Below are positions 5,059 through 64,000 of a stretch of DNA of 64,000 nucleotides, in pieces. The position numbers and the translations under genes are program-made. The notes beneath the pieces were generated by a model. The model did no database searches. It was not told the DNA's origin and was given only the letters and a program-made list of their open reading frames with translations. Origin of the DNA: Candidatus Poribacteria bacterium (lineage in GTDB: Bacteria; Poribacteria; WGA-4E; WGA-3G); the NCBI GenBank assembly GCA_007571305.1, contig RKRR01000138.1:27331-91330 (forward strand), in the 5' to 3' direction. Position 1 is the stretch's first letter. The number at the start of each line of letters is the position of its first letter.

Positions 5059-5105
5059 AATTGCAAGGTATGCCTGTAGCATAAACTTTCAGTTTGTGCC
5101 TATAG

Positions 5106-5265
5106 TAACCCAAGTTACTACTCACAAGATTTTCGGCATCCTGTCCCATTTTTCACTGAAACGGTTTCATGATTCGGAGGTATTCCGTAGCGTAGGGTGT
5201 TGGTCTCCTACGTGCTTAAAATGCAGACCCTAACAGGTTATGCTACAAACTGGCAACTTGGGTTA
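5106..5265 (-). repeat. MITE-like repeat, family B, copy B1
   Basis: Termini TAACCCAAGTT ... AACTTGGGTTA. Flanking ATAGT is duplicated on both sides. Carries the shared hairpin core (reverse orientation, about 5226-5247). Similar to 60868-61014. Confidence 0.75.
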
Positions 5266-5317
5266 TAGTAGTTCTCTATAACCAACCATGCTTCGTCACA
5301 ACCTAAAGGAGAAACCC

Positions 5318-6379
5318 ATGGACAAAATCAGAGTTGGTATCATTGGATGTGGCGGTATCTTCCGCAGCCTCCACGCCCCTTATTACGAAGAATCGACGCG
5401 GCGTGCAGATATAGTCGCAATCGCTGACCTCAATGAGACATCCGCAAATGAGCAAGCGGATCGATTTGGTGCGGATGCCTACACAGATTATCGTGAGCTC
5501 CTCGACAGGCAGGATATAGACGCTGTTGATGTGTGTGTCCATCCGCGTCCTCATCTCGAAATTACCCGTGCTGCCGCCGATGCTGGCAAGCATATTTTGA
5601 TGGAGAAGCCGATGTGTTGTAGTGTAGCCGAAGGTGAAGCGATGATCGCCTCCGCTGAAGATGCAGGTGTTCTTCTGATGGTCGCCTATATGATGCGGTT
5701 CAGTCCGGGCTACATGAAACTGAAATCGTTGTTAGACGATGGCACACTCGGCACACTACAGATGGCGTATTCCAATCAGGTCGGTTGGTTTTCGCCGGAC
5801 CGACATCCGTGGCTATTTGTGAAGGCAGAGTCGGGCGGTATGTTAGTGGAGCAAGCGATTCACGAACTCGATATTTGGTTGTGGCTTTACGGTCCCGCCT
5901 CTACTGTCTACGGATTCACCAGCCATGTTCCACTCGGTGGCACCTACCCACCTGCGGAACGGGCTGTGGAGAACAATGCAGTGCTCACCGTGCATTTCAA
6001 GAACGGTGGTGTCGGGATGATGATGAAGAGTTGGGCGGCTGAGATTCGGAACAGCGGTAACGGTCTCGTCACGAGCAAAGGTTCTGCGACGTTGATTCAC
6101 AATGGACTCCGTTGGAAAACCCACGACATGGTGGAAGCGGAAGAATTCACGGCTCCTGTGCCAGATGATGGCACCTACCGCAATATGCCAGAAGAGCGGC
6201 GTCAACAACGGTATTGGGGGGTAGCGGCGAAAGGAACAAGCATCAACCATTGGCTCCAATGTATCGCCGGTGAGGCAGAGCCGACAACCCACGGACGTAT
6301 GGGAAGAGACGGTATAGAATTGGCAGAGGCAACGTATCGTTCCTCCCAAATCGGCGCACCGATCTCTTTACCGCTGTAG
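5318..6379 (+). CDS. Gfo/Idh/MocA family oxidoreductase
   Basis: MDKIRVGIIGCGGIF Rossmann start preceded by AAAGGAG. The track start at 5288 lacks an RBS. MEKP motif present. Confidence 0.85.
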   Translation: MDKIRVGIIGCGGIFRSLHAPYYEESTRRADIVAIADLNETSANEQADRFGADAYTDYRELLDRQDIDAVDVCVHPRPHLEITRAAADAGKHILMEKPMCCSVAEGEAMIASAEDAGVLLMVAYMMRFSPGYMKLKSLLDDGTLGTLQMAYSNQVGWFSPDRHPWLFVKAESGGMLVEQAIHELDIWLWLYGPASTVYGFTSHVPLGGTYPPAERAVENNAVLTVHFKNGGVGMMMKSWAAEIRNSGNGLVTSKGSATLIHNGLRWKTHDMVEAEEFTAPVPDDGTYRNMPEERRQQRYWGVAAKGTSINHWLQCIAGEAEPTTHGRMGRDGIELAEATYRSSQIGAPISLPL

Positions 6380-6386
6380 TGGTACT

Positions 6387-6510
6387 TATAGTAGAATCCG
6401 ACAATAAATTTCCATTTGTAGCATAGCCTGTTAGGCTGTGCCATCAGAACAGATAACTTCAGAGTCCACACGCCGCTACAAGTGTCCAAGTAATTACGGA
6501 ATCTACTATA
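6387..6510 (+). repeat. MITE-like repeat, family C, copy C1
   Basis: Termini TATAGTAGAATCCG ... CGGAATCTACTATA. Core TGTAGCATAGCCTGTTAGGCTGTGC. Alignable by eye to 36073-36199 and 46368-46498. Confidence 0.75.
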
Positions 6511-6610
6511 ATCTTTACCCCCTGAAAAGGCATCTCCACAATCCTGTGTCAATTTCCGATACCCATTTTGTGGATTGGGAGAAAAGAATAATTTGGAGGA
6601 GAAGGAAGCC

Positions 6611-7555: not shown

Positions 7556-7747
7556 TGGCAGTAATAGCATCTTATGAAATACCAGATTGTAGCATTGCAG
7601 TAGGAAATAGAGGCGCGCAAACAAAGGTATCAGGTATGGATGAGGTTTATTCCCGCACCAAATTCGGGTATGCGCCCATATTATGAAGACACATTGGACA
7701 AACCGACCTGATCGCAAGCCGTAGTCGGAAATTAGCAGAGGTTTATA

Positions 7748-9041: not shown

Positions 9042-11774
9042 TTACATCGAAATCCCCAACAACCCTCGCGTCAACTGAAAATCTGTATTCCCTTTGCTGT
9101 GCAGTTTTGGCGTATACTGCCGCGAAGCCACTTCTACAACTAACGCCAATAGCTGGTCAACATCGGCAGTCGTCAAGTCTAAATCTGCACCGTAATTAAC
9201 TTGCGTTATGGCATCCGTAGAGACTTGGATCAGCGGCACCATCACATGCGATTGCAAAGGTGCTCCGACGATATGCGCAAGTGCTAAATCTACACCCGTC
9301 GCACCTAAACCTGTCAACGTTTCCGTTTGTTGATCGGTCGGCATCTCCATGATATGGAAACCTGCGTTCTCAACCCGTTGCCCATACGCCAAAGTCGTAT
9401 GCACACGCCGTGTGTCGTGACGTATAAATGTTGCGTTCGCTGGTGCGACTACCGTTCCACCTGCAGCGACGACTCTATGTGTCAATTGCGTCAGGGATTC
9501 CGAGACTTCTCCAGTTATCTTACCAGTTGATGTCACGGCCATGCAGAGGTTCTCTAATCCTGCCTCGACAACAGGAACAGCCGGTTTGTCCGCAAGTTCC
9601 TCCGAAAACCAATCTTGCACCTTCTCAATGACAGCATCAATCCCACCATCCAATTGCACGCTTGCCCAACCGTAGCGTTCCGGCGATATTCCCAATTTCT
9701 GAATCTCGTGTCGGACGTGGTCGTTGTGGGTTTTCTCACAACCGTGTTCAAGGAGTAAACCGAGGGCAACTGTTGGATGTGTGAGGTGTCCAATCATCGT
9801 GCGGGTATAAATCTCCTCGGAACGTCCGCTGGAGACACCACATCCTTCTGTATGTGGGAGCGCAACAAAACGTGATATACCTTGCTCCTTGCCAATATTC
9901 CGCTCGTTGCAACGGTGCGCAATCATCTGTGCAATTTGACCCGAACAGAGACTGGTCGGCAAAATCAGTCCCACTTGATTCGTACGGCATCCATCTTCTG
10001 TTTGAAGTGCACTGAATTGCAATTCCTGAGAACTCGCGGCTACATCGGAGGTTTCGATAGGAATCGGCTCGCCAGACTTCAATTCAGATTCTGTCAACAA
10101 TGGATTTAAATCCACGGGACCCGTCTGCTTCCAATCGCGCCAGAGTGAGACTTGGGAATGCCCTGCTTTCTCACCGACAGAACGTTCACCCGATGCAACG
10201 TCTACCGTCACGTCGAGCATAGACTCACCGAGTTTTTCCATAGGTGTACCATCAAGGTAGGCACCGGCATTCACGTCCATGTCCTTTTCAAGCATTTCAT
10301 ATCGCCCTGTCGTGGTGACGATCTTAATCGTCGGCACGAATGGGAAGTTCGTAATCGAACCGTTCCCTGTTACGAAGAAAATCATGTTAGATCCCGAGGC
10401 TACCTGTCCAGCGATGCTCTCCAGATCGTTACCGGGACTGTCCATGAAATAGTAGCCCGATTTCTCCATCAGTTGACTGTAATCAATAACGTAATCGAGA
10501 CAGACATCAGGATGCCTTTTCATTGCCGCACCGATTGATTTAATGGCGATGTTATAGAGTCCACGGAAGTTATTGCCGCCAGATGGATTCGCTTCTGTGG
10601 AGTGGCCATGCCACGCTGCACGTTCCTTGAACCGTTCAATCGTATTGAGGAATTTGCGAGCTGTCGGCAGGTCACGGGTATTCTGCAGTACGTAGGCCTC
10701 AGAACCGATAAGTTCATCGGTTTCTGCGAGGTTGGCACACCCACCATAACGGATAACCTCTTTCGCAACGTAAGCGGCAAGTGGATTACCCGATACGCCA
10801 GAAAACGCATCCGATCCGCCACACTGCAAGGCAATTTTGAGATGTTCCAGGGATTGCTCGGTGCGTGCGACGCTGTCTACACTGTCCAACCATCTACGAA
10901 TAATCTCTGTACCACCTGCTAAATCTGTGTCGAAACTTCCGTGTAACCGATGGAAATGGTGGACAACGTCATCTAAAGCATAACCCTCCCGTAGCATATA
11001 CGCCTTAAGCATCTCGTTTGTAACTGACTCGGTGCCGTAATCTACAAGCAGTATCGCTCCGATATTCGGATGGACAGTGAAACCGGCGAGCGTTCGGAGC
11101 AGCATATCAATGTTGTTGGGAGTTTTGCTTTCGCCTCCCTCCGTGTGCGTTACTGCAACAATACCGTCTATGTTCGGGAATGTATCGGGGTTACAAATCT
11201 CTCCTACAGAACACATATCAGCGAGCTTTCTTGCAAAGCCGGAGGTGCGTGCAGTTGTCCCCATAACGACGATATAGTTTCGCGTGCCAACGCCACGATT
11301 ACCGGGACGTTGATAACCGAGGAAAGGACGGTCGTGTGCATGACGCGGCACCTGTGTGCCTGATCGGAATTCTGTTTCATTCAACTCATACGGTGCCATT
11401 TTATCGCTGAAGTTCGGTGTCTTTGGCAATTCAAAGGGTAGGTTTCTAATCGATAACGAATCAATCATCTTCTGATTACACACGTAATCGCCCGAGGAAA
11501 TAGAACGTATGGCAAAACCGAAGGGTAGCCCCCACGACAAGAGTGGCTCAGTTTCCGATATTGATTGTATCGCGAACCGATGCCCTTCTAAAATGGTGTG
11601 TGATAGTTGAAACTGCTGTTCTCCATGAGAGCCGATGTAACAGATCCGTGTGCCGCACGCCAATGTTTGTGTGGCAATAGCGACGTTATCGTCTGGCGAA
11701 GGCAGCCGTGCCACGTCGGTAAAATCAACTTCTAATTTATCTTGCCGTTCACTCAAATGGTTTATGTTTTTCAC
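9042..11774 (-). CDS. UxaA-family (altronate/galactarate dehydratase-like) protein with an extra C-terminal copy of the catalytic module
   Basis: SAF-like N-terminus (DDNVAIATQTL..GHRFAIQSI). PFLGYQRPGNRGVGTRNYIVV. The first module has HTEGGES / DYGTES; the second module (last ~350 aa) has HTEGCGVS / EHGCEKT. Confidence 0.8.
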   Translation of the reverse strand: MKNINHLSERQDKLEVDFTDVARLPSPDDNVAIATQTLACGTRICYIGSHGEQQFQLSHTILEGHRFAIQSISETEPLLSWGLPFGFAIRSISSGDYVCNQKMIDSLSIRNLPFELPKTPNFSDKMAPYELNETEFRSGTQVPRHAHDRPFLGYQRPGNRGVGTRNYIVVMGTTARTSGFARKLADMCSVGEICNPDTFPNIDGIVAVTHTEGGESKTPNNIDMLLRTLAGFTVHPNIGAILLVDYGTESVTNEMLKAYMLREGYALDDVVHHFHRLHGSFDTDLAGGTEIIRRWLDSVDSVARTEQSLEHLKIALQCGGSDAFSGVSGNPLAAYVAKEVIRYGGCANLAETDELIGSEAYVLQNTRDLPTARKFLNTIERFKERAAWHGHSTEANPSGGNNFRGLYNIAIKSIGAAMKRHPDVCLDYVIDYSQLMEKSGYYFMDSPGNDLESIAGQVASGSNMIFFVTGNGSITNFPFVPTIKIVTTTGRYEMLEKDMDVNAGAYLDGTPMEKLGESMLDVTVDVASGERSVGEKAGHSQVSLWRDWKQTGPVDLNPLLTESELKSGEPIPIETSDVAASSQELQFSALQTEDGCRTNQVGLILPTSLCSGQIAQMIAHRCNERNIGKEQGISRFVALPHTEGCGVSSGRSEEIYTRTMIGHLTHPTVALGLLLEHGCEKTHNDHVRHEIQKLGISPERYGWASVQLDGGIDAVIEKVQDWFSEELADKPAVPVVEAGLENLCMAVTSTGKITGEVSESLTQLTHRVVAAGGTVVAPANATFIRHDTRRVHTTLAYGQRVENAGFHIMEMPTDQQTETLTGLGATGVDLALAHIVGAPLQSHVMVPLIQVSTDAITQVNYGADLDLTTADVDQLLALVVEVASRQYTPKLHSKGNTDFQLTRGLLGISM

Positions 11775-11813
11775 ATTCTCCTCCGTAGCGTTTTTAATTT
11801 ATGGACTCCTCGA

Positions 11814-11845
11814 CCGCTCTCCATTCCATTACGAGCAGGTTTCCG
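11814..11845 (+). repeat. short dispersed repeat, family E, copy E1
   Basis: CCGCTCTCCATTCCATTACGAGCAGGTTTCCG closely matches 29755-29787. Weaker similarity continues about 35 nt downstream. Confidence 0.5.
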
Positions 11846-11915
11846 ATGAAGTTCAAAACACCTTCATAACTATAGGCGATTGGAATTATGGTAAAGCCCG
11901 AAAAATAGAAGAGAA

Positions 11916-12485
11916 TTACCGGCGATAGATGCTAACTTCGATTGCGTCCTGTTTCACCCACGGCAGGTCGATGTCAAACCAGTGTGTTTCAGACTCATAA
12001 CGCTCTCGGACGTGTTCCAGATAATCCGCCATTGATTCGGCACCGATACCGACGTTGTCCGCTACAACAGTTGCTGGATTTGTCAACTGTGGTTCAATTG
12101 CCTGAAAGCAGGGGAAGTAGTTGTTGAAATTGTTATCGAGGAGCAGAAAATCAACAGGAGCTTGAATGCTTTTGAGGACTTCTTGGGCATCCCCAATGCG
12201 TGAGTCGACGAGATCAGCCATTCCAGCACGCTCGAAATTTGTTCGCGCTTGCGCGGCACGGTCAGTATCTATTTCTATCGTTATCAAGCGTCCAGTGCCA
12301 GCGGCTTTCAACACCCGTAGTATCCAGAGTCCGGAATAACCGATAGCGGTTCCGCATTCAACAATGAGCGATGGTTCCGCCTTTTCGACGCAGGTAGCAA
12401 GAAATTTCGCCTTTTCTTCTCCCAACATCGGGATCCTCTCTGCTTTACACTGGGCTTCGACTTCTTGTAAGACTTGATCAAACAT
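11916..12485 (-). CDS. class I SAM-dependent O-methyltransferase (family 3-like)
   Basis: VECGTAIGYSGLWI SAM-binding motif and LLLDNNFNNY. ATG at 12485 is preceded by GGAGG. The track start at 12497 is 4 codons upstream. Confidence 0.8.
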   Translation of the reverse strand: MFDQVLQEVEAQCKAERIPMLGEEKAKFLATCVEKAEPSLIVECGTAIGYSGLWILRVLKAAGTGRLITIEIDTDRAAQARTNFERAGMADLVDSRIGDAQEVLKSIQAPVDFLLLDNNFNNYFPCFQAIEPQLTNPATVVADNVGIGAESMADYLEHVRERYESETHWFDIDLPWVKQDAIEVSIYRR

Positions 12486-12731
12486 GTGGACCTCCATCTG
12501 AAAGTGATTGTTCTATTCTGAATTTGACACCTGTTGTATTTTTGTAGGGTTTGCGCAGTGCTTTATGAAAATAATCATACACGAAAACCGCTTTGGAGTC
12601 AAGAGAGGGCATTTGGTGCTTCTGTAGGAGAAACTCCGAATTTCCGGTCTCCATTCTCATGCCCCGAAAAAATTTGAAACCAAATCTGGAGTTCGGTGTA
12701 TATTATGGATAGGCACCTCTGGAGGAACCTG

Positions 12732-13331
12732 ATGCTTGATTTAGATGATGAATTAATGGAATGCTACCAAAAAGGAGATGAAGGCGCGTTTACGCTTCTC
12801 GTGCGCCGGCATCAGCAGCCACTCATTAATTTCATTGCTCGGTTCATTAATGATAGGGATACCGCTGAGGATTTAGCTCAGGAGACGTTCATTCGTATAT
12901 TTAAAGCGGCGCACCGTTATAAACCGGGGCGGGCGCATTTTAAGACATGGATGTATCACATCGCCAAAAATCTTTGCAAAAATGAAATCCGAAATCGAGA
13001 ACGACGGGACAAGTACAAGGTTGATAACGTTGTAGACAGCGGGAGTGATGGGAATAACCAAACAGAAAAAATTGACTTGATTGCAAATGCACCCGCGAAC
13101 TCTGGTTTCCAACCGGAAGTGGAACTTGAACGCAAGGAATTACGCAATGCTATCCAAAAGTCAATCGCAGAATTACCAGAACAATACAGGCTCCCGCTCG
13201 TCTTACGTGATCTACAGGGGCTAAGTTACGACGAAATCAGTGAGGTGTTGGAACTCCGGAGCGGGACAACGAAATCTCGGATCAACCGTGCCCGACTCAT
13301 GCTGAAAGATAAGTTAAAACCGTTTATCTAA
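12732..13331 (+). CDS. ECF-type RNA polymerase sigma factor (sigma-70 family)
   Basis: Region 2 (DTAEDLAQETFIRIF) and region 4 (LPLVLRDLQGLSYDEISEVL). ATG at 12732 is preceded by GGAGG. Confidence 0.85.
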   Translation: MLDLDDELMECYQKGDEGAFTLLVRRHQQPLINFIARFINDRDTAEDLAQETFIRIFKAAHRYKPGRAHFKTWMYHIAKNLCKNEIRNRERRDKYKVDNVVDSGSDGNNQTEKIDLIANAPANSGFQPEVELERKELRNAIQKSIAELPEQYRLPLVLRDLQGLSYDEISEVLELRSGTTKSRINRARLMLKDKLKPFI

Positions 13332-13349
13332 TGTTCATAGGAGTAGTGG

Positions 13350-13931
13350 ATGATGAACTGCCTACAAGCTGAGGAATATTTTTCTGCCCATTTTGAGGAC
13401 GCACTTGATTATGAGACGTTGCAGCGTCTTGGCGAACACCTCACAGCGTGTGAGACGTGTCAACAGGAATATGCCAGATTCCAGGAATCTGTTAAGGTGG
13501 TCCAGCAATTGCCACAGATTGAGCCCTCACCCTACTTTATGCCGACGTTGCTACAACGGATCGCCGAAGAGCAACGCGGGATCAGTGGCGTTAAGGGGAT
13601 CTCGACAGCGGATTGGAGGCAACTGCTGGATGTATTTCGCCGTCCGATATGGGCATTCAGCGGTATTCTGGCGTTAATCCTCGCAGTAACTGGCACCTAT
13701 CTCTCTCAAGATGGATTCCTGTTCGATCGAGACTCCCGCTCAGCTGCAGTAACATCTGAGCCTGAACAAATACGAGTTGTGACCCCACCAGTAGAGATTC
13801 GGCGTACCGTCGGAAACGGCAGTCAGTTCCGACCGGGCGGTGTTCTCTCAACGCCTGCACGGCCACTGCAACAACACTACGTCTTAAAGCAAGTGAGTTA
13901 TGCCAACGCGTCCACAGGAGGTGGACTTTGA
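13350..13931 (+). CDS. anti-sigma factor (zf-HC2 type) with one TM segment
   Basis: HLTACETCQQEY zinc-finger motif, a central hydrophobic helix, and a position immediately downstream of the ECF sigma gene. Confidence 0.7.
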   Translation: MMNCLQAEEYFSAHFEDALDYETLQRLGEHLTACETCQQEYARFQESVKVVQQLPQIEPSPYFMPTLLQRIAEEQRGISGVKGISTADWRQLLDVFRRPIWAFSGILALILAVTGTYLSQDGFLFDRDSRSAAVTSEPEQIRVVTPPVEIRRTVGNGSQFRPGGVLSTPARPLQQHYVLKQVSYANASTGGGL

Positions 13932-14075
13932 TTTCGCAGAGATTTTTATTTAACTGTTAAATTTCTATTTTTTTCGTTCCTTGTTAAGGCATGCAGTTCT
14001 TATAACGTTACGATTCACCGAAGACCCGATTGACCTTTCAGTTCAATCGGAGCGAAAACCTAATAACTAAGAGAA

Positions 14076-15230
14076 ATGTACACGATAAGATCAAAACATC
14101 AACAATTAATAATTGGATCACTGGGGCTGCTCTTCTCTGTCGTCATTTCCAGTTTCGCGAATGAGAACGTGCTGCAGATGCTTGAAAAGGATTTTCAGAG
14201 AGTCGTCACTGATGCACGTCCGGCAGTTGTAAAGGTTGTCGCGACACAGGTGATGTCTGGGCCGCTTTCATCAAGCATTGACGAGTTAGCATTTACGCGT
14301 CAAAATATCGGTTCCGGTATTCTTATCGATGCCGCTGGACATGTTGTGACAACAACTTTCGAGATGGAAACTCCAAGCAAGATTGAGGTTATCTTTAATA
14401 ATAAAAAGGTGTCTTCAGCGAAATTGATCGGCACTGATATACTCACTGATATTGCTGTGCTTCGAGTTGCAAATGCACCGCGCGAATCCGCACCACCAAC
14501 GAATGCAGTCAAGTCAAAAGGATCTGATGAATGGAGCGAACTCACGCCTCCTCATAACTGGGGTGATTCTTCAAAAATTGATACCGGTTCCTGGGTCGTG
14601 ACAATAGGGAGCACTTATGGACAGAGTCCCATTGTCTCCTTCGGTATTGTAGGAGGTTGGGACCCCTTACCAAATCAAATGTGTGGAGAATTGATGAAGA
14701 TCAACGCCGCGGTTACGCCCGGCAACAGCGGCGGGGCAGTCGTGAACACTTCAGGAGAGGTCGTTGGGATGATCTTGGCAGTCTTAACGGAACCCGTCCG
14801 GGATAATTCGCCTGCTGACTTGCTGTTCGAGAAACCGAGCGATATAGACATTACGCAATTGCTTGCTCCATCACCACCATTGGGGATCCGTAATCAGGAA
14901 ATTACCTTCGCTCTGCCGATAGAGACGGTTCGCTCTGTTGCCAAAGAAATTATAGAGCACGGGAAAGTCGCGCGTGGCTGGCTCGGTGTTGAAGTTGATG
15001 TCGGCGAGTTGGGGGTCTTCGTTACAGGTGTGATTGAAAACAGTCCTGCACACAAAGGCGGTCTTTTGCCCAAAGATCTTATCCTCGAATTTAACGAAGT
15101 CCCTGTTCACTCCTATGCCGAATTGTTAAGATGCGTTGTCAGCAAGCGACCCGATACAGAAGTACGGCTTAAGGTCGGTAGGAACGGTGTCGAACAACAT
15201 TGTACCGTGATGTTAGGCGAAAAGCATTAG
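14076..15230 (+). CDS. HtrA/DegP-family trypsin-like serine protease with PDZ domain
   Basis: GNSGGAVVN catalytic Ser motif, HVVTT and DIAVLRV triad contexts, a C-terminal PDZ-like GVFVTGVIENSPAHKGGL, and a signal-like N-terminus. Confidence 0.85.
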   Translation: MYTIRSKHQQLIIGSLGLLFSVVISSFANENVLQMLEKDFQRVVTDARPAVVKVVATQVMSGPLSSSIDELAFTRQNIGSGILIDAAGHVVTTTFEMETPSKIEVIFNNKKVSSAKLIGTDILTDIAVLRVANAPRESAPPTNAVKSKGSDEWSELTPPHNWGDSSKIDTGSWVVTIGSTYGQSPIVSFGIVGGWDPLPNQMCGELMKINAAVTPGNSGGAVVNTSGEVVGMILAVLTEPVRDNSPADLLFEKPSDIDITQLLAPSPPLGIRNQEITFALPIETVRSVAKEIIEHGKVARGWLGVEVDVGELGVFVTGVIENSPAHKGGLLPKDLILEFNEVPVHSYAELLRCVVSKRPDTEVRLKVGRNGVEQHCTVMLGEKH

Positions 15231-16303
15231 CGAGCGATCCGATCAAATTCAGCGAGGTATATTTGCGCAATATCGGGATTTTCTTTGATAATCAATAGAT
15301 TCTCGCTATTACGTTCTTCCGCGTTTTTGGAGAAGTTATACGAACCCGTAATCACGATCTCCTCATCAATAACAATGACCTTGTGGTGCATGCTCCCCTT
15401 GTGTCTATCCAGAGTCACGCCTAATCCAGCCTTTTTCATAGCATTGTATTCCGAATAACGATCATCAACCAGTCGTTTCTCGAACACACCGCGTACGTTA
15501 ATCCCTGATTCAAAACGCTCCCGCATCGCAGTGCCCAGTGCATCTTGCGTGAACGAAAATGCCATGAAATGAATCGATTTCTTGGCGGATCCGATCTCCC
15601 TCAGAAGCGACGAAATAATATCATTTTCTGGTGAAAAGTAGGTGTATATCTGTGTCCCATCGCCAAGTGTCACTTTCGGATGCACAACAGACGCGCCAGC
15701 AGATTTCTCAGCCCGCATTTGCCGAAACAGTTCTCGGAACTCCTGTGTGAAGTTGTATGCCAGCGGGACGGAATCTATGAATATTACGTTATTCTTGTTT
15801 CTATATGCGCCGTTGTAGGTCGTGTTATAGGAACCGGTCCAGACGTACTGCTCATCAATCACAATGAATTTGTGGTGCATATAACTGCCGGAGTCTCCAT
15901 CGTCAGCGACGGGGATGCCGACTTCCTGCAATTGCGCAATTGCGTCCTCATCAATGTTGTCCGTTTCAGTGACGACTCGCACCTGTACGCCGCGGCGGTG
16001 TGCTTTAATGAAAGCATCAGCTATGGATGTGGAGTCCAAGTGGTAGAGTGCCGCATCGACCCGTGATACGGCGATAGAAAGCCTCTCGACAAGACGGCTC
16101 TCAAGCGTCGGGTGACTGTCCCCAGCATCGACTTCACTGAAGTAGATGTCCCACGATACGACGGGAGGTCTACTGCTTTTGTAATGTCTGATACCGATGC
16201 CGATGGCAACGGCACAAAACAGGATGAAAAGGAGGGGTAGAAATTTGGAAGTTTTCTTTTTGGGTGTTATGTTAGTTTCATATCCACCCGAATCACTGTT
16301 CAT
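15227..16303 (-). CDS. membrane-anchored phospholipase D-like (two HKD motifs) protein
   Basis: MHHKFIVIDEQYVWTGSYNTT and MHHKVIVIDEEIVITGSYNFS both fit HxKx4Dx6GSxN. N-terminal TM helix. Confidence 0.85.
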   Translation of the reverse strand: MNSDSGGYETNITPKKKTSKFLPLLFILFCAVAIGIGIRHYKSSRPPVVSWDIYFSEVDAGDSHPTLESRLVERLSIAVSRVDAALYHLDSTSIADAFIKAHRRGVQVRVVTETDNIDEDAIAQLQEVGIPVADDGDSGSYMHHKFIVIDEQYVWTGSYNTTYNGAYRNKNNVIFIDSVPLAYNFTQEFRELFRQMRAEKSAGASVVHPKVTLGDGTQIYTYFSPENDIISSLLREIGSAKKSIHFMAFSFTQDALGTAMRERFESGINVRGVFEKRLVDDRYSEYNAMKKAGLGVTLDRHKGSMHHKVIVIDEEIVITGSYNFSKNAEERNSENLLIIKENPDIAQIYLAEFDRIAR

Positions 16304-16312
16304 TGCATCCCT

Positions 16313-17203
16313 CTAAATGCCCCATCTCTGCCGTGATTTCTCCAAAGACTCAATCTGCGCGCCTTGCTGCTTCCACGCATAATGTCCCTTCGGTTTTTCA
16401 CCAACCCAGCGTTCATCGATGGGTTCAGCGGCGAGTTGGTAGCGGGTATCTGCTGTAATCCGGATCTTATCCGAGGTGTTAACGAGTGAAGCGTGCATCA
16501 GAAACATGCTAAAAATAATAACATCACCCGCTGAAAACGTTGTTGTTGCCCAGTGCCCCCCAAATTTCTCGACAATCTCAAGCGGTTTATCGCTGAAGTG
16601 TCCCTCAATCAGATCCCGATCCACATCTGATTTGCCATAAGTTGCTCGGACTTCTTCAAATAGGTTGGAGCCGAGACAGAGCACAATAGGCCCCATGTCC
16701 AGGGATACATCGCCAAAGGGTGTCCAACAGGAGTAGAGGTTTTGTGTGCCTCTGCCCATAAAAACGATGTCGTAATGTATCGGGGATCCTGATTGGGGTC
16801 CCGCTGTGCGAAGCCATTTGAAATCGAATGTCCGGGCATCGCCGCCGAGGAACGCTTTGAAAAAGTTCATGATGGGTTCACCCTCAACAACTGCTTTGAA
16901 TGCTGGCATCTGCGTGAGTTCTTTATTACCCATTGACCCGGTTGATGTCGGTTCAGGGTAATTGGGGTTGAATATCCCGTCCATCAGCGGTGTATTCGGT
17001 GCGATCATCCCTTTTGCTGCGAGTTTCTCCATGATCTGTCTGCGCGCTGTGAAGATCGCGTCCTTGTCGTGTAATCCGCGAATTAAGAGATACCCATCTG
17101 TTGCTATCCGCTCCTGCAGGGCATCCGGGTTGTCAAGGATGTCGTTACTTTCTCGCAACTCGGTACTGACATCTACTTCCTGATGTAAAAAAGGGAGTTT
17201 CAT
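16313..17203 (-). CDS. phytanoyl-CoA dioxygenase (PhyH) family Fe(II)/2-oxoglutarate oxygenase
   Basis: PIHYDIVFMGRGT (HxD) and a distal MHASLVN His. Start MKLPFLHQ at 17203 avoids overlap with the upstream gene; the track start is 17236. Confidence 0.8.
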   Translation of the reverse strand: MKLPFLHQEVDVSTELRESNDILDNPDALQERIATDGYLLIRGLHDKDAIFTARRQIMEKLAAKGMIAPNTPLMDGIFNPNYPEPTSTGSMGNKELTQMPAFKAVVEGEPIMNFFKAFLGGDARTFDFKWLRTAGPQSGSPIHYDIVFMGRGTQNLYSCWTPFGDVSLDMGPIVLCLGSNLFEEVRATYGKSDVDRDLIEGHFSDKPLEIVEKFGGHWATTTFSAGDVIIFSMFLMHASLVNTSDKIRITADTRYQLAAEPIDERWVGEKPKGHYAWKQQGAQIESLEKSRQRWGI

Positions 17204-17207
17204 ATTT

Positions 17208-19217
17208 TTAATTGTGGTCCTCTTGCAACCAAGCAAGGTTAAATCGATAATGTTGACGACTGCTAATTAGATGTATAATCCCATTCTGTCCTTGGCAAAC
17301 GGCGAGATAACCGCCGAGTTCTGCATCGTTTAACCCCATCGTAAAGGGACGTCCATCCATCGTCTCGATCTCTCGATCTTCTCCATCATCTGTAATCAGG
17401 CGCATACATTCCCATGTTTCGCCGTCGTCATAAGATAACGCACCGAAGAGCCCTGTGACGAGCCGTTCATTTCCAGAAGCATCAACGATCGGCATGGGGG
17501 TCGGAACTGTCCGCTCTCCTGTGAAGGTCGCAAGAAAAATCGGTCCCTCTTGAAGTCGTAGCAGAACGCAGCGTTGTCCACCAGAAACGAGTGGAAACGG
17601 ACTTGCACTGTAATGCCATGTCCTGCCACCATCTGAGGAGAGGCTCTTCGGCATCCGTCCGTTAATTGTATCACCTCTACCGTAAGCCATCAACCTTCCA
17701 TCTGTGAGTTCAACCACGGCTGCATGGATGCCAGCGATCCATCCACCCTGTTTGCCGTCGGCGAATTCAGGGATCGGTTGTCCCGCTCCCGGATCGTACC
17801 ATGTTTCACCATCGTCGTCACTCAGCCATATTGCGGTGCCACCGTTACCCCCGCTCACTGCATCGCAGGCGAGGAGGATCGAACCGTTCTGTCTGCGGAA
17901 AACAGAGGCAATCGGCATATGCCGAAGTCGGTGCTCTGGCGATATGAGGCGCGGTCTAGACCAAGTAGCACCGTTATCGTCAGAGTAGCGTAACACCAAC
18001 GCTAAGGGCCCCCATGTTGCAGCAGCGGAGAGGCCATTGAAGTGATAAATCCGTCCATTCTCGTTTCGCCAAAGGGACGTAGCGTGGTTGTTCCGATCGG
18101 GCGGACCCCAGAAGGGTTCGGCTGGGTCCCATTCGGTTTCACCAAAGCGCAATCGGCTCGCGGCGACTGTCAATTCACGTCCACGCTCTGTTACACACGA
18201 ATACCACGCCGCGAACATATCACCGTTCGGACATTCCGCAATCGCTGGGACATGATTATGCGCCGAAAAAAGCGGACCATTTGAACCTTCTGGAATTTGA
18301 ACGTATGTGAGTGGTTCCGCAAAATAAGGGGATTCTGGCGCGGGTGCACCCCTATTTTCCTGTTTAACGTCGCGTCCCCATAAGGCTACTTTAGATGCTG
18401 GGGTTGGAGAGGCCTGCGGCATCTCGCCACAGACGACACGGAATCCGATGTACCAGTGTTTATCTTCTGGTACTGCTCCCATCCGATTGGCTGATCGTAG
18501 ATAACAGAGTAACGTCGAGTGACTGCCACCCCGTGTAACGCGATACAAGCCTTCTTCCCGACCCACAGGATCCACCTGTGAATCTGGTTCGTAAGTCCCA
18601 TACCAATCTTGGCACCACTCCTCTACATTTCCGTGCATATCGTATACGCCCCAGGCGTTGGGTGGTGTCTGCCCAACATGTAAAGGCACGATTTCTTCTA
18701 CCCCACGACTCCGTTCTGTATCCGGGTACCAACTCTCTCCAACATTTTTATGGTACGCAGGCGGTAATGTATCGCCCGTATGAAAATGGGTTGTTGTCCC
18801 TGCACGACACACATATTCCCACTCTGCTTCGGTTGGCAGGCGATACGGAAGTCCCTCCTTTTCGGATAGCCATTTACAGAATCGCGTCGCATCGTACCAA
18901 TCCACAAACACAACCGCTTCAGTATCGTCCTGTGAAAAGCCCAGTTTTCCGCGGAGTTCCTTGTGGGCAGGTTGGAATTCTTCATATTGTGCATTCGTCA
19001 TCTGAAAAATGCCGATGTAGAACGGTGTAGTGAGGGTTACTTGATGCACCGGCTGTTCATCCCAATCGCCGTCGCGGAGGTATGCTTTTCCGGCTGTCAA
19101 CTCATCTGATAGCCCTGCGTTCTTTGAACCCATGCGAAAGGTCCCGGGTTCAATTCTAACGAGCTGCATCCCTATTGAATTTGTATACGTTTGACCTTCA
19201 ATCGCCAATTTCTGCAT
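17208..19217 (-). CDS. fusion protein: FGE-sulfatase (SUMF1-like) domain plus BNR/Asp-box sialidase-like propeller
   Basis: N-terminal half carries RLPTEAEWEYVCRAG, MHGNVEEWCQDWY, RGGSH and GFRVV. C-terminal half has four SxDxGxTW boxes (SDDNGATW, SDDDGETW, SSDGGRTW, SYDDGETW). ATG at 19217 has an AAGGAAG RBS; the TTG at 19253 is an alternative start. Confidence 0.8.
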   Translation of the reverse strand: MQKLAIEGQTYTNSIGMQLVRIEPGTFRMGSKNAGLSDELTAGKAYLRDGDWDEQPVHQVTLTTPFYIGIFQMTNAQYEEFQPAHKELRGKLGFSQDDTEAVVFVDWYDATRFCKWLSEKEGLPYRLPTEAEWEYVCRAGTTTHFHTGDTLPPAYHKNVGESWYPDTERSRGVEEIVPLHVGQTPPNAWGVYDMHGNVEEWCQDWYGTYEPDSQVDPVGREEGLYRVTRGGSHSTLLCYLRSANRMGAVPEDKHWYIGFRVVCGEMPQASPTPASKVALWGRDVKQENRGAPAPESPYFAEPLTYVQIPEGSNGPLFSAHNHVPAIAECPNGDMFAAWYSCVTERGRELTVAASRLRFGETEWDPAEPFWGPPDRNNHATSLWRNENGRIYHFNGLSAAATWGPLALVLRYSDDNGATWSRPRLISPEHRLRHMPIASVFRRQNGSILLACDAVSGGNGGTAIWLSDDDGETWYDPGAGQPIPEFADGKQGGWIAGIHAAVVELTDGRLMAYGRGDTINGRMPKSLSSDGGRTWHYSASPFPLVSGGQRCVLLRLQEGPIFLATFTGERTVPTPMPIVDASGNERLVTGLFGALSYDDGETWECMRLITDDGEDREIETMDGRPFTMGLNDAELGGYLAVCQGQNGIIHLISSRQHYRFNLAWLQEDHN

Positions 19218-19357: not shown

Positions 19358-19485
19358 ATAACCCAAGTTGCCAGTGCTGTAGCATCACCTGTTAGGTTGT
19401 GCCTCTTCACATCGAAAATCACACGGATTACCGCCAATTTTTCGCAAAAATGAAGGAGTTTCGCTGAAAAATGGGGTTCGTGGAT
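19358..19485 (+). repeat. MITE-like repeat, family B, copy B2 (right end missing)
   Basis: ATAACCCAAGTTGCCAGTGCTGTAGCATCACCTGTTAGGTTGTGCC..., collinear with 56249-56407 up to GTTCGTGGAT. Confidence 0.7.
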
Positions 19486-19507
19486 GGGAATGTTTCATTA
19501 AATTTAC

Positions 19508-19536
19508 TTGCATTCTTAACAGAGTTGTAGTATAAT
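19508..19536 (+). promoter_or_regulatory. sigma70-like promoter candidate (TTGCAT-17 nt-TATAAT)
   Basis: Near-consensus hexamers lie 70 nt upstream of the ATG at 19606, which has an AGGAG RBS. Confidence 0.5.
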
Positions 19537-48108: not shown

Positions 48109-48123
48109 TCACTTAACCGGGTC

Positions 48124-48242: not shown

Positions 48243-48275
48243 CGTTAATTTTATCTCTATGCCTCGGGAAGACCT

Positions 48276-48862: not shown

Positions 48863-50176
48863 TTATGATACGAAAAATTCGGGTTCAAACACGAGCCTGG
48901 GGTATTCGTGCACTTGGCATCGAGGTTTTGTGAGGTCTTTGAGGTCTCGGAGTTCCGGCGGCACATCAAGGTATTCTTGGAGTTCTGGGAATTCCGAGCG
49001 GATGAAGTCTTCAAAGGCTTTGGCAGCGGCGGCCTGCTGCTGTGCGGCGCGTGCGGCGGCCTCTGCTTGATGTGCGGCTTCGGCCTCTGCATCGGAAAAC
49101 TGGGAAACATCCGCGCCCTCCGGTGCTGTCCGTGTCGAAAACTCGGCGGGTATATCAAACTGTCCTCTAGTGCGCGTCGCAACGGTGTCGGGGCTGCCGG
49201 TTTCGGTACCCATGGGGAGCGGTGTCTCCTGAACCGGGCGTTGAATCGGCTCGATCAGCGGCTTGCCCTCTTCAATCGCACGGATCTGCCGCGCCGATTC
49301 CCAATTTTGTGTCTTCGCGTAGTCCTCACGATAGATCGCTAACGCCTTCTGATATTGACCCAGCCGTTGGTAGGTGTCACCTATTAAGTCTACAAAGGAA
49401 TTCTTGGAGAGTTTTGCGGCTTCCTGCTGGTAGCGGAGTGCTTCTTCGGGTTTATAGTACCAGATCGTGCCGGCAAAGGAATCCAGGTATCTGGCGCGAT
49501 CCTCCGGGGGGAGTCCCTCCATAGCGATGAGTTTCTCGTAGGCGGCTTCGCGCTCCGGGTTCGGGCCTTCGGGGATATAGCCCTGCTGTCCTATCCATAA
49601 ATAGAGGCGTTCCGGATCGTCGGGTGCCTCTGCGAGTGCCTGATCGGCGAGTTCTTTGAGGTAGTCATCCGGACCCGATGCGGTGTTGTAGAGGTATTCT
49701 GCTGCCTCCCAGGCGGACATGCCCTCGGTTTTGGCAATCGCGCGTTGCCGTTCTAAGATGGCATCACTCTCCTCTCGGGAAATCTCGTCCCTTTGGACAG
49801 CATAGTGGAGATGGTGGCGGAGTTCATCGAGACGTTTCCATTGGGTATCGGTGAGTTCGCGTTCCGCGGGCCGCGTGTAGGTAGCTGTTTCACGCCGCAG
49901 TGCCCCTTGCAACGGTGCTGGCGACTGTCCTTGTGGTGCCCCCCGCATCAATGGGGTGTTGCCGCGGGTGGGAAAACCGTCGGGCTCGGTGCGTTTTTCC
50001 GTGTCGGCGTTCTCTGCTGCTGGGCGGGGTTCCGCGCCGGGGGTGTCGGTGCCGGTTTTCCAGCGTTTTGTGGCATAGATCCCCGCGAAGACGAGGCAGC
50101 AGCCCGCGAGAGTGATGAGAAACACGCGATCGGTGAAAAGGGTTCGGATGAGGTGTTTCAAAAAGTCTCTCAACAT
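48863..50176 (-). CDS. hypothetical membrane-anchored protein with TPR-like helical region and Ala/Gln-rich tail
   Basis: N-terminal TM (VFLITLAGCCLVFAGIY) and low-complexity AEAEAAHQAEAAARAAQQQAAAAKA. Visibly more GC-rich than its neighbours. Confidence 0.6.
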   Translation of the reverse strand: MLRDFLKHLIRTLFTDRVFLITLAGCCLVFAGIYATKRWKTGTDTPGAEPRPAAENADTEKRTEPDGFPTRGNTPLMRGAPQGQSPAPLQGALRRETATYTRPAERELTDTQWKRLDELRHHLHYAVQRDEISREESDAILERQRAIAKTEGMSAWEAAEYLYNTASGPDDYLKELADQALAEAPDDPERLYLWIGQQGYIPEGPNPEREAAYEKLIAMEGLPPEDRARYLDSFAGTIWYYKPEEALRYQQEAAKLSKNSFVDLIGDTYQRLGQYQKALAIYREDYAKTQNWESARQIRAIEEGKPLIEPIQRPVQETPLPMGTETGSPDTVATRTRGQFDIPAEFSTRTAPEGADVSQFSDAEAEAAHQAEAAARAAQQQAAAAKAFEDFIRSEFPELQEYLDVPPELRDLKDLTKPRCQVHEYPRLVFEPEFFVS

Positions 50177-55064: not shown

Positions 55065-55138
55065 CAGTTAGCCTCCTTACTATATGATAGTGCTATTATA
55101 TCACGCGGGCAGAAATACAAGCAACTTTTAATGTCAAT

Positions 55139-55257
55139 AGGACTTACGCAGACCGCTCTTTTGTAGCATAACCTGTTAGGTTGTGCCAGGGGACCGTGTG
55201 TGTTTTGCTAGTTCGCCTGCTCAGAGACCGTGTTGTTGTCAAAATTGCGTAAGTCAT
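55139..55257 (+). repeat. MITE-like repeat, family A, copy A5
   Basis: AGGACTTACGC ... GCGTAAGTCAT. Flanks ATGTCAAT / GTGTCAAT. Confidence 0.8.
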
Positions 55258-55342
55258 GTGTCAATTAATTCTGAAATCTACCATAGTTATTGGTGTTCAT
55301 AGAAATCTGAAACCACCACCCTACTTTGCGTGAAGATATCTC

Positions 55343-55622
55343 TTAACGCAAGTTGCCAGTTCTGTAGTATAGGAAACCGTGTGTTTCCTGGGCATAAATG
55401 TGCACAAACGGAAAGTGAACACCACAAAAACCCGCGGATCCTCAACGACTCCCAATGAAATGGTCTCTATCGTTGTAGCATAACCTGTTAGGTTGTGCAT
55501 CTTCGGGCACAGGCTGACAGCCTATGCTACGAACTATGCTACGAAATACTGCGGATCCTAAGCGTTTTCACTGAAACATCGCAGATGCCTCTCTAAAATT
55601 GTGTCCGTAGCAACTTGGGTTA
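55343..55622 (+). repeat. composite family B repeat, copy B4
   Basis: TTAACGCAAGTTGCC ... GCAACTTGGGTTA, enclosing three core hairpins (55363, 55473 and a reverse one at 55509). Confidence 0.7.
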
Positions 55623-56217: not shown

Positions 56218-56248
56218 ATAATGGCCGGTCGTCGGTTCCGCAGGTATT

Positions 56249-56407
56249 ATAACCTAAGTTGCCAGTTCTGTAGCATTACCTGTTAGGGTGTGTAACTTCG
56301 CACAGAAAACCACACGGAACACACCCAATTTTTCCCAAAAATGAAGGAGTCTCACTGAAACAGGGTGTTCGTGGATCTGACATCATATAGGTAGCAACTT
56401 GGGTTAA
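56249..56407 (+). repeat. MITE-like repeat, family B, copy B5
   Basis: ATAACCTAAGTTGCC ... GCAACTTGGGTTAA. Abuts the stop codon of the 56408-56881 gene. Confidence 0.75.
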
Positions 56408-60852: not shown

Positions 60853-60867
60853 GTATTTGGGGCAGTG

Positions 60868-61014
60868 CAATAGTTGTCAGTTTGTAGCAGAACCTGTTCG
60901 GTTGTGCAGCTTAAGCACGCAGACTCACGGTTTCCTACGCTACGAGATGCCTCCGAATTCAGTGAAAAATGGGACAGGATGCCTAAAATCTTGTGAGTAG
61001 CAGCTTGCGTTAAG
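60868..61014 (+). repeat. MITE-like repeat, family B, copy B6 (degenerate termini)
   Basis: Collinear with the reverse complement of 5106-5265. Core TGTAGCAGAACCTGTTCGGTTGTGCAG. Confidence 0.65.
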
Positions 61015-61823: not shown

Positions 61824-61888
61824 GTTTCCTACAGATCACTTTTCGGATCAGCAAGGTAAAATTAAAAATCTGGAGGTGAGAAAACATA

Positions 61889-62662
61889 ATGTCAGATATC
61901 GGAAAATTCTTTCAAGAAAACGGATACTATTTCGCGAAAGCGGTCTATTCGTCCGAAGAAATCAAGGTGATGGAAAGCGACTTTGATCGGGTGGTGGATC
62001 AACTCCTTAAAAGCGATGAAAACGTCAACGCTCGCTGGAAAGGCAGATTGACAGATGCCCTTGATGGGGGTGAATCTATTATCATCCATACCCACAATAT
62101 CCAGAGTTTCTCTGGGGTCTGGATGCAGGCATTTTTGCATGAGAAGTTTCTGGATGTTACCGAATCCATTCTCGGACCGGATATTATGCTTCATCATTCC
62201 AAACTCTTTTGCAAACCTCCGGAGCAAGGTGCTCCTTTCCCGATGCATCAAGATTGGCAGTACTTTCCCTCTGTCAAAGACACCATGATAGCCGCTATCA
62301 TCTATGTCTCGGACGCTGCCGATGAAATGGGGTGTGTTCGTGTCTATCCGGGTTCCCACAAGGCGTTGGGACGCACCGATGGTATGATGGGAAGCGGAAA
62401 GAACGTTGAAGTTACCGATAGATACCCTATCGAGGAAGCCACCGTTTTAGAAGCGGAACCCGGAGATGTACTTTTCTTTAGTTACTTCACACTGCATGGT
62501 TCCATGCCGAACCGCTCAAACCGGACACGAAAGAGCGTCCTTGTTCAGATGTTTGCCGGGGACGATGAGATCGAAGCCGAGAATCGCCACACCAATGTCC
62601 AACTGGTGCTTCGTGGCTGGAACCATCTCGCAACCCGTTCTTCTGTAGGGCAGATTGGATAA
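61889..62662 (+). CDS. phytanoyl-CoA dioxygenase (PhyH) family oxygenase
   Basis: PMHQDWQYF (HxD), a distal TLHGSMPN His, and an RKS Arg. Confidence 0.8.
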   Translation: MSDIGKFFQENGYYFAKAVYSSEEIKVMESDFDRVVDQLLKSDENVNARWKGRLTDALDGGESIIIHTHNIQSFSGVWMQAFLHEKFLDVTESILGPDIMLHHSKLFCKPPEQGAPFPMHQDWQYFPSVKDTMIAAIIYVSDAADEMGCVRVYPGSHKALGRTDGMMGSGKNVEVTDRYPIEEATVLEAEPGDVLFFSYFTLHGSMPNRSNRTRKSVLVQMFAGDDEIEAENRHTNVQLVLRGWNHLATRSSVGQIG

Positions 62663-62904
62663 ATCAAGAGTACTTTGCTCTACTTGGTTATTGGGGTGAT
62701 CAACTGTTTATAGGGCTTTAACTATTGGCACGTCATCCACATTTTTTAAGGAAGTCCGGGTTGATAGTTAAGCAAAATCACGGGATTGCGTGAGTCCTAT
62801 TGGAAAAACGAAACATAGCCCGTAATGAAATGGAGGGCGGATCTACGGAATGGCACTTCACATTCCAAATCCGATCTGACCGAACCGCAAGGAAAATTAA
62901 AAAG

Positions 62905-63900
62905 ATGATTAGAGTCGCAAAGATGAGTATGGCACATGTCCACGCCGGTGGTTATGCCCGCAAAATCAACGAAAACCCTGAAACTGAACTCGTTGCTGTC
63001 TGGGACGAAGAGGAATACGGAGGAAGAGCAGCAGCAGAGCAATACGAAGTGCCTTTCTACACCGATCTCGCCGAAGTTCTCAGCCGCGACGATGTAGACG
63101 CAGTCGCAGTTGATGCGATCACATCCGACCATCCGCGTGTCATGATTGCCGCCGCTGAAGCTGGGAAACATATCTTCACTGAAAAAGCACTCGCAATTAC
63201 CGTCGCCGAATGCGATCCAATTATTGATGCCGTTGAGAAGGCGGGTATAAAATTCATGATTTCGCTGCCTTCCCGAGCAAACCCTGAAATCATATTTGCG
63301 AAAAGGGTGATTGACGATGGACTGCTTGGGGACATTACGTTCGGTAGAGGACGGATCGCACATTCTGCTGCACTGGATAGTTGGTTCAGCGGCACGAGCG
63401 CATGGTTCGCAGATCCAGTCCGTGCCGGTGGCGGTGCCCTTTTCGACTTGGGGTGTCACCGTGTTGATGTTATCCGATGGTTGATGGATGAGCCGAAGAG
63501 TGCTATCGCTAAGATTAACAACTTCACTGGCAACTTCCCGATTGATGACAACAGCGTTTCGGTCGTTGAGTTTGCGAACAAGGCACTCGGTGTGATTGAT
63601 GTGGCGTGGACACACCGTTCGGGTCCGAACATGCTTGAAATTTACGGCACGGAGGGTTCATTCGCGGCAGGACACGGCGAGATGCATTTTGAAACCCGCA
63701 AACTCTCTGATGAGGAGAAAGCGGAATACATCGCTAATGCTCCCGCTGCACCACCTGAACCGATGCAACAGTGGATTAACGCTATCCTTCGCGATGAACC
63801 GATGACGATTACCATCCAAGATGGACGTAATCTTACGGAACTGATGCAAGCGTTCTATATTTCCTCTGAACACGGACAGTCAGTTGATTTCCCACTTTAG
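62905..63900 (+). CDS. Gfo/Idh/MocA family oxidoreductase
   Basis: MIRVAKMSMAHVHAGGYA and TEKA. The track start at 62800 adds 35 codons with no support. Confidence 0.8.
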   Translation: MIRVAKMSMAHVHAGGYARKINENPETELVAVWDEEEYGGRAAAEQYEVPFYTDLAEVLSRDDVDAVAVDAITSDHPRVMIAAAEAGKHIFTEKALAITVAECDPIIDAVEKAGIKFMISLPSRANPEIIFAKRVIDDGLLGDITFGRGRIAHSAALDSWFSGTSAWFADPVRAGGGALFDLGCHRVDVIRWLMDEPKSAIAKINNFTGNFPIDDNSVSVVEFANKALGVIDVAWTHRSGPNMLEIYGTEGSFAAGHGEMHFETRKLSDEEKAEYIANAPAAPPEPMQQWINAILRDEPMTITIQDGRNLTELMQAFYISSEHGQSVDFPL

Positions 63901-63903
63901 GAG

Positions 63904-64000
63904 TTAACCCAAGTTGCTACGGACACGTTTTTAGGAAACCCATAGATGCCGTTTTTCAACGAAAATCCTTCAGTATTTGGCTGTTTTTGTAGCATAGGTT
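63904..64000 (-). repeat. family B repeat, copy B7 (cut by window end)
   Basis: TTAACCCAAGTTGCTACGGACAC... matches the reverse complement of the right part of 55343-55622. A core starts at 63988. Confidence 0.6.

Follow-up and report, generated by a model that had tools for sequence, protein, structure and literature searches.

The 64,000-nt window analysed here (Candidatus Poribacteria bacterium, assembly GCA_007571305.1, contig RKRR01000138.1, positions 27,331 to 91,330; window coordinates count from its first letter) carries numerous copies of a short hairpin, named REP1 below as a candidate repetitive extragenic palindrome (REP). An initial annotation of the window had placed about 19 copies of this core in it. 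When the quoted 25-mer was searched with up to 3 mismatches, 12 matches were found against 0.00 expected from dinucleotide-preserving shuffles, and 17 copies were detected at E<0.01, 14 of them at ≥30 bits, by a covariance model for which 15 copies had served as input. Together with a listing of all GTAG[CT]A contexts, this recovered every one of the 19 copies: 14 have a short stem (5075, 5223-5247(-), 6417, 19378, 29637, the degenerate 31970, 35333-35357(-), 36264, 48147, 55162, 55474, 55507-55531(-), 56269 and 60883), four are long-stem or hybrid variants (36103, 46398, 46529 and 55363), and one, starting at 63988, is cut by the window end. Additional copies, absent from the earlier list, lie at 46565-46597(-) and, as GTAGCG variants, at 5186-5212 and 35296-35328. 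Every window copy is located between long open reading frames (ORFs), and across Poribacteria 151 of 155 copies are outside long ORFs. The density is about one copy per 3-4 kb (0.3 per kb); if it were uniform, the 19-22 copies found in 64 kb would correspond to more than 1,000 in a genome of 5-6 Mb. Inverted pairs are formed at 35296/35357, 55474/55531 and 46529/46597. Other poribacterial genomes were examined as 8-kb tiles (L numbers below), and three of these loci (L033, L056 and L109) contain tandem arrays with a period of 37-43 nt. A CRISPR-like reading of such arrays near genes for REP-associated tyrosine transposases (RAYTs) was rejected, as the 'spacers' are themselves repeated (L109). 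A tRNA search of the window gave no match.

The core has the consensus [T/C]GTAGCAT-stem-GTT-stem-GTGC and is an imperfect palindrome of 25 nt, in which a 9-bp stem encloses a loop of 3 nt; all four bases of GTAG are invariant in the seed of the covariance model. Folded as DNA, the GTAG strand forms an uninterrupted 9-bp hairpin (-6.1 kcal/mol, z = -3.8), the complementary strand gives -5.0 kcal/mol with an internal mismatch, and the long variant is a 12-bp hairpin of -11.8 kcal/mol. Compensatory changes in the stem, as proposed before, turned out to be real and strong, and they are concentrated in two central pairs. Analysis of 150 model hits, representing 121 distinct copies, showed 98.3% paired cells in the distinct copies, with A-U in 64 and G-C in 52 of them at pair 12/24, and C-G in 41, A-U in 37, G-C in 31 and U-A in 10 at pair 13/23. 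The remaining seven stem pairs are nearly constant; this includes the U·G at 10/26, kept in 113 of the 121 copies, which confirms the conserved T-G pair that had been noted in the window. None of 500 shuffles reached the covariation score, and slid registers made it collapse. When sites were anchored by GTAGCAT only, a perfect 5+5 inner stem was present at 141 of 246 sites in poribacterial DNA. Seven inner-stem types were observed (AGGCT 42, AACCT 34, AGACT 16, AAACT 15, AGCCT 8, AATCT 7 and AGTCT 1), and each of the five stem pairs quoted in the initial annotation was found in window copies. Several variants occur side by side in single genomes, and they also coexist in a homologous element of different species (family A, see below). 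As this variation is found within one homologous element family, it reflects compensatory change in the element lineage and not a mixture of unrelated repeats. On the 5' side the core is preceded by T at -1 in 92% and at -2 in 78% of contexts, and a CT lies within 6 nt upstream in 64%, which is consistent with a nearby RAYT nick site without proving one.

Most window copies are carried by larger elements with inverted termini. Family A has the termini (T/C)AGGACTTACGC...GCGTAAGTCCT(A/G), a length of about 121 nt and 5 window copies; family B has AACCCAAGTTGCC...GGCAACTTGGGTT, 96-277 nt and about 8 window copies; family C has TATAGTAGAATCC...GGATTCTACTATA, about 125 nt and 3 window copies. Each type of termini occurs across Poribacteria and also bounds elements without the core. 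For family A, the termini are identical to the terminal inverted repeats (TIRs) of a 1,086-bp insertion sequence (IS) with a gene for a DDE transposase of the IS701 family (373 bits with NCBIfam, cut-off 250). This autonomous partner, with 12-bp TIRs and 5-bp target-site duplications (TSDs), was found at about L063:4796-5885 and also in L128, L129 and L130, with 66-90% protein identity. A truncated copy lies at L063:6030-6993, and many homologues are found on contigs about 1,089-1,091 nt long, an indication that the IS breaks assemblies. Perfect 5-bp direct repeats flank 26 of 55 elements with A termini compared to 1 of 220 shifted controls, among them the window copies at 29615 (TTTTA) and 31948 (ATTAA). 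Moreover, window positions 13333-13350 represent an empty site, which in L115:5872-5960 is filled by a MITE (miniature inverted-repeat transposable element) with family A termini and a 5-bp duplication TAATG, and four near-identical 117-nt family A copies are present in different flanks of one genome. Shared IS ends, 5-bp repeats, the empty site and the dispersed 117-nt copies therefore identify family A as a classical MITE, the composite of which moves whole. Family B has 15-bp TIRs with flanking direct repeats (5-bp or longer) that are perfect in 7 of 11 cases and 4/5 in 2 more; the TIRs of family C have TA flanks that cannot be distinguished from an extension of the TIR. Thus, the DDE transposase with matching termini that the initial annotation had suggested looking for exists for family A.

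The five family A MITEs are located at 29613-29733(+) (IS701-type TIRs, REP1 29637-29661, TSD TTTTA on both sides), 31946-32066(+) (degenerate REP1 31970-31994, TSD ATTAA), 36240-36360(+) (degenerate left TIR, REP1 36264-36288, flanking direct repeat GTTGT), 48122-48243(+) (degenerate right end, REP1 48147-48171) and 55138-55258(+) (REP1 55162-55186, 48.1 bits). Elements of family B or B type begin with 5107-5264(-), flanked by the TSD ATAGT, which holds REP1 at 5223-5247(-) and the inverted GTAGCG variant 5186-5212(+); it is abutted by a solo REP1 at 5075-5099(+) with the stem AAACT/AGTTT and a TTC loop (38.7 bits). At 19358-19512(+) a B-type element with a degenerate right end and REP1 at 19378-19402 is 84% identical to 56247-56376. 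The short element 35280-35375(-) (TSD AATTT) has as its interior a REPIN-like inverted pair, 35333-35357(-) and 35296-35328(+), and the partial element 46519-46620(-) an inverted long-stem pair, 46529-46559(+) and 46565-46597(-). A composite element at 55345-55621(+) combines the long-stem variant at 55363 with the inverted pair 55474-55498(+) and 55507-55531(-). The series is completed by 56251-56405(+) with REP1 56269-56293, by 60862-61010(+) with degenerate termini, REP1 60883-60907 and an inverted GTAGCG variant near 60930, and by 63904-64000(+), where a left terminus (63904-63921) precedes the REP1 beginning at 63988, which the window end truncates. Family C is represented by 6386-6511(+) (TATAGTAGAATCC...GGAATCTACTATA; REP1 6417-6441, stem AGCCT/AGGCT, 47.3 bits), 36072-36201(+) (long-stem/hybrid REP1 36103-36133, 19.7 bits) and 46366-46498(+) (long-stem REP1 with GGAAACC/GGTTTCC, 46398-46428).

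Between the same termini other cargo was detected, namely REP2-like hairpins, G-rich/C-rich palindromes and a bare 38-nt hairpin. About two thirds of the REP1 copies in the phylum are outside A, B or C contexts, where they occur singly, in inverted pairs or in tandem arrays, and the IS701-family IS itself has no REP1. Therefore, REP1 and the termini are independent modules that combine with each other, and the earlier statement that one core resides inside three elements with unrelated termini is borne out. A single, recently expanded element can be rejected, as the termini are independent, phylum-wide and found with other cargo. One family C element is nested in a family B element, and another holds three tandem REP1 copies with a 37-nt period (L025:148-408; L109:7645-7824).

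We were also interested in the distribution of the core. A scan of public genomes (one representative per species) with the pattern TGTAGCATANNNNGTTNNNNTGTGC, in which four stem pairs are left free, gave at least 106 matching stretches, and 104 of the 106 among the matches listed are from Candidatus Poribacteria, in metagenome-assembled genomes (MAGs) or single-cell genomes of about 50 assemblies. The core is thus a phylum-wide feature of these sponge symbionts. A scan of viral contigs with a stem-agnostic pattern gave 17 stretches, with true hairpins only in L012, L015 and L016 and chance matches in the others. Window positions 11388-18921 have syntenic DNA of 81-89% identity in L115 (OZ242029.1). 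Relative to window positions 17211-17239, L115:1761-1928 is longer by about 140 bases, which include two direct REP1 copies and separate two genes that overlap each other in the window; this may be an insertion in L115 or a deletion in the window, and no TIR or TSD was recognised there.

A motif scan (HUH/Tyr) of the fetched DNA led to four proteins, and two of them, in L050 and L056 (265 and 250 aa), are encoded by genes with the core on both sides. Their protein family has 2,485 matches in Poribacteria at E <= 1e-5, one homologue carrying the JGI name RayT. Four further homologues of 66-80% identity (L124-L127) were picked by protein identity and not by a DNA motif, and their genes represent at least three gene neighbourhoods. 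At all six loci, 2-7 REP1 copies lie within about 300 nt of the gene, in clusters on both sides, giving a density of about 8 per kb compared to 0.3 per kb in the window. The hairpin is specific to the RAYT lineage (GCATAGGCT, GCATAGCCT, GCACAAACT, CCGCAAACT, GCGCAAACT): the outer stem GCAT/GTGC is changed to GCAC/GTGG, CCGC/GCGG or GCGC/GCGC beside diverged RAYT genes, and GTAG is retained except in L126 (GTAC/GTAT). In an alignment with two canonical RAYTs, H136, H138, Y218 and N222-P223 are invariant. The best match among solved structures is E. coli TnpA-REP (4er8, E = 0.002), to which the HVH and YxxxNP regions align, and the sole NCBIfam match of this clade is REP_Tyr_transpos. That model is passed by two other poribacterial RAYTs, L033 with 126.6 and L069 with 96.9 bits, whose genes are flanked by different GTAG palindromes, GGTAGGTGCGGTT...AACCGCACC at L033:6851-6901 and 7591-7743 and GTAGTAGGGCAATTCATTGCCC at L069:6779-6843 and 7612-7688. 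The former has 33 near-matches (<=1 mismatch) in 21 sources, its window match at 2613 being likely due to chance, and the latter has no match in the window. With two other RAYTs beside two other palindromes, at least three REP-RAYT pairs exist in Poribacteria, REP1 being part of one.

The RAYT coding sequence itself also contains a REP1-like hairpin, which lies on the opposite strand (L125:3478-3507(-) and L126:3478-3507(-), 38-42 bits), with degenerate counterparts at L050:2774-2803(-) and L056:5482-5511(-). It occupies the same codon positions in all lineages and lies within a 22-aa insertion directly after the HUH strand (…AQT..LCY…) that canonical RAYTs do not have. It looks like an old in-frame insertion of a REP into its own transposase gene. 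The REP1-linked RAYT gene often adjoins a gene for an Mrr-type restriction endonuclease (L050:595-2198, L056:3363-4883; L124/L125 at about 4350-5315), and two of the loci also adjoin a MutH/Sau3AI-like gene, with REP1 arrays between the genes.

From the tagged hairpin, its covariation and the flanking of RAYT genes, the core is very probably a GTAG-tagged REP of Poribacteria that is recognised by a RAYT and in this genome is mostly a passenger of MITEs. E. coli TnpA-REP binds GTAG base-specifically, needs an imperfect hairpin and contacts the mismatched base; it also tells the REP from its complement, and its cleavage site is a CT close by (Messing et al., 2012, PMC3479197). By analogy, the GTAG strand of REP1 would fold on single-stranded DNA into a hairpin with a GTT loop and the conserved T·G mismatch, and the RAYT would bind it by reading the 5' tag (GTAG), the stem base, the mismatch and the loop. 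The invariant positions (GTAG, stem base, T·G and the CT/AG beside the GTT loop) would then be those that are read, and the two central pairs, being structural only, would be free to vary as long as they pair, which may explain the covariation. A RAYT gene lying elsewhere in the genome, between clusters of REP1, would provide the enzyme that nicks near the hairpin and probably spreads REP1 in the form of single units, inverted pairs and tandem arrays. Most window copies appear to be passengers in three miniature inverted-repeat families moved whole by DDE transposases, of which family A is the non-autonomous derivative of the IS701-family IS; REP1 may have entered each family by insertion into, or capture by, hairpin-forming elements. 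As most window copies are inside MITEs, the high local density is largely due to MITE proliferation. Out of the three roles considered initially (protein-binding site, RNA stability or terminator module, transposase-recognition hairpin), a predicted transposase-recognition hairpin is favoured.

Several observations weigh against this interpretation. Neither a RAYT nor another transposase was found in the window by a six-frame HUH/Tyr motif scan and a Pfam search of 10 repeat-adjacent small ORFs, so that the linkage of REP1 to RAYT rests on relatives; the search for RAYT genes proposed with the initial annotation succeeded there, with the six loci flanked by REP1. The REP1-linked clade, of about 250 aa and with two insertions, scores 58.8 and 65.7 bits with REP_Tyr_transpos (cut-off 80) and 17-20 bits with Pfam Y1_Tnp (cut-off 23). 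The last G of GTAG is able to pair with the 3' C of GTGC, and the tag is therefore not wholly unpaired, unlike in the E. coli structure. An insertion polymorphism that involves REP1 alone and has a clean empty site was not found, which leaves RAYT-driven mobility of REP1 putative. For the termini of families B and C, no autonomous full-length IS was found in the DNA searched. Finally, the GTAG strand showed no concordance with local GC skew at 106 loci (64 vs 80), and a lagging-strand mechanism on single-stranded DNA is thus unsupported by orientation. A weak opposite trend at |skew| > 0.04 (22 vs 42, uncorrected p = 0.017) allows no conclusion, because the orientation of genes dominates the skew of 8-kb tiles.

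REP1 and its RAYT belong to the known kind of GTAG REPs and are not categorically new. For GTAG REPs, 24 families have been described, with complementary-stem sub-families, frequent G-T pairs, dimers and clusters; these REPs flank RAYT genes and also occur inside longer unrelated palindromes (Di Nocera et al., 2013, PMC3733652). The sharing of one module between different termini therefore stands as proposed, but its presumed unusualness does not, as complementary stems, G-T pairs and REPs in palindromes are all known for GTAG REPs (PMC3733652). Like E. coli REP/BIME with TnpA-REP, Pseudomonas REPINs and Stenotrophomonas SMAGs, REP1 has a GTAG head and a short imperfect palindrome. As in other GTAG REPs and REPtrons, it is extragenic, occurs as singles, inverted dimers and tandem clusters, has complementary-stem sub-families and a G-T pair in the stem, and it shares with them a Y1/HUH RAYT flanked by the repeats and the presence of several REP-RAYT pairs per phylum. 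In contrast to them, its stem is AT-rich, only two pairs covary freely and pairing is possible for the last G of the tag; its RAYT differs from that of known REPtrons in the length of about 250 aa and in two insertions, one encoded by REP-like sequence; and most copies in this genome are embedded in DDE-type MITEs. The host phylum is different as well, as no description of REPs, RAYTs or MITEs in Poribacteria was found in the literature searched. REPs inside palindromes have been reported for Anabaena variabilis (GTAG-15 dimers in TATAGGA...TCCTATA), Thermomicrobium roseum (GTAG-23) and, as chimeric TIRs, for P. putida and P. fluorescens (PMC3733652). These resemble the present case in that a REP is regularly found within a longer unrelated inverted repeat, but the outer repeats in Poribacteria are identified as ends of MITEs by 5-bp TSDs, an empty site and the IS701 partner of family A, and one REP occurs in three outer families, each of which also has other cargo. 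With Correia/NEMIS, MITEAba12 and cyanobacterial MITEs the carriers share a length of 90-160 nt, TIRs and TSDs, intergenic location, long hairpin folds and TIR identity with a full-length IS; unlike in these MITEs, their modular interior includes the recognition hairpin of a second, unrelated HUH/Y1 system. The imperfect hairpin with an adjacent 4-nt guide on one strand and a Y1 HUH enzyme is also a feature of IS200/IS605 subterminal hairpins and PATEs. Unlike in IS200/IS605, however, REP1 hairpins do not form the two ends of one IS but are scattered in hundreds of copies, the L033 and L069 proteins match RAYT better than IS200 TnpA, and the IS200 model gives no match for the REP1-linked clade.

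REP1 might moreover be more than an accidental passenger, with the MITEs and the REP-RAYT system forming a functional partnership, in which each of the three unrelated families has fixed a RAYT hairpin just inside one terminus, providing a second route of mobilisation or repair through the Y1 enzyme for the MITE or a vehicle by which the vertically inherited RAYT-REP system spreads, and in which the REP-derived insertion in the RAYT gene serves self-recognition or autoregulation; we regard this as rather unlikely.

That REP1 is instead a module acting at the RNA level (terminator, 3' stabiliser, small RNA or riboregulator) and selected as useful cargo is very unlikely. The G·U-compatible T·G pair is kept on one strand, the stem changes are compensatory, and all copies are in intergenic spacers that look transcribed. 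E. coli REPs stabilise upstream mRNA. An RNA role has also been raised for GTAG REPs (PMC3733652). However, the GTAG strand lies sense 50 and antisense 40 times in tandem gene pairs (p = 0.34), and divergent, convergent and tandem spacers contain 22, 16 and 90 copies with 72, 77 and 429 such spacers available, which is proportional and shows no preference for 3' ends. Furthermore, the stem is not followed by a T-run (the downstream consensus is C/A, then mixed), Rfam at gathering thresholds gave no match in the whole window, and family A in the window has every copy on the + strand, irrespective of the orientation (+ or -) of neighbouring genes. The terminator or RNA-stability role suggested initially is therefore not supported.

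Equally, we consider it highly improbable that the hairpin is primarily a chromosomal site for a host protein, such as a nucleoid protein, gyrase or a site-specific single-strand nuclease, with the RAYT linkage being secondary. Base, loop and mismatch are conserved in sequence throughout the phylum, E. coli REPs/BIMEs are bound by IHF, gyrase and Pol I (PMC2817692), and REP-RAYT systems regarded as domesticated typically persist for long times (bioRxiv 10.1101/2021.07.10.451892). No specific host factor is indicated, however, and the tight flanking of RAYT genes together with hairpin variation that matches the RAYT lineage is explained directly by RAYT recognition, with which a host protein acting alongside would be compatible.

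Least probable of all, and close to dismissal, is a hairpin that serves as a subterminal binding or enhancer site of the DDE transposases and is integral to each MITE rather than a REP passenger: in all three families the core does lie inward of the left terminus by 3-20 nt, GTAG facing outward, and recent amplification concerned whole composites, but the autonomous IS701-family IS is without REP1 (it spans L063:4798-5883, and the only model match in L063, at 6844, is outside it), TSDs are still present at many elements that have other cargo between A, B or C termini, most REP1 copies of the phylum are outside these contexts as described above, and three transposases for unrelated TIR sets would have to share one hairpin requirement.

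With REP1 as a RAYT-recognised REP, the known hosts of REP-RAYT systems gain a deep-branching, uncultivated and sponge-associated phylum, and a hairpin common to about 50 species-level genomes supports the view that such systems are ancient and vertically maintained. The two covarying pairs in an otherwise fixed hairpin and the lineage-matched changes beside RAYT genes predict which positions the enzyme reads. REPs within IS701-type and other MITEs illustrate how two transposition systems combine into mosaic intergenic repeats, which is useful for annotation and assembly of poribacterial MAGs, as the repeats break contigs, and calls for caution before REP-MITE mosaics are taken for novel structured RNAs.

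In addition, a second intergenic hairpin was observed, in which the loop TCCATT(C/T)CATTAC is fixed and the stem covaries (CGCTC/GAGCG, ACCGC/GCGGT, GCCC/GGGC). It is located at 11814-11845, 29755-29786 and 62833(-), with weaker copies at 32133-32164 and 49583-49614, and was also found in six other poribacterial loci. Window positions 38500-43800 show a lower GC content (0.42-0.45), a GC skew of +0.14 and a run of ORFs on the same strand, and may represent a foreign island.

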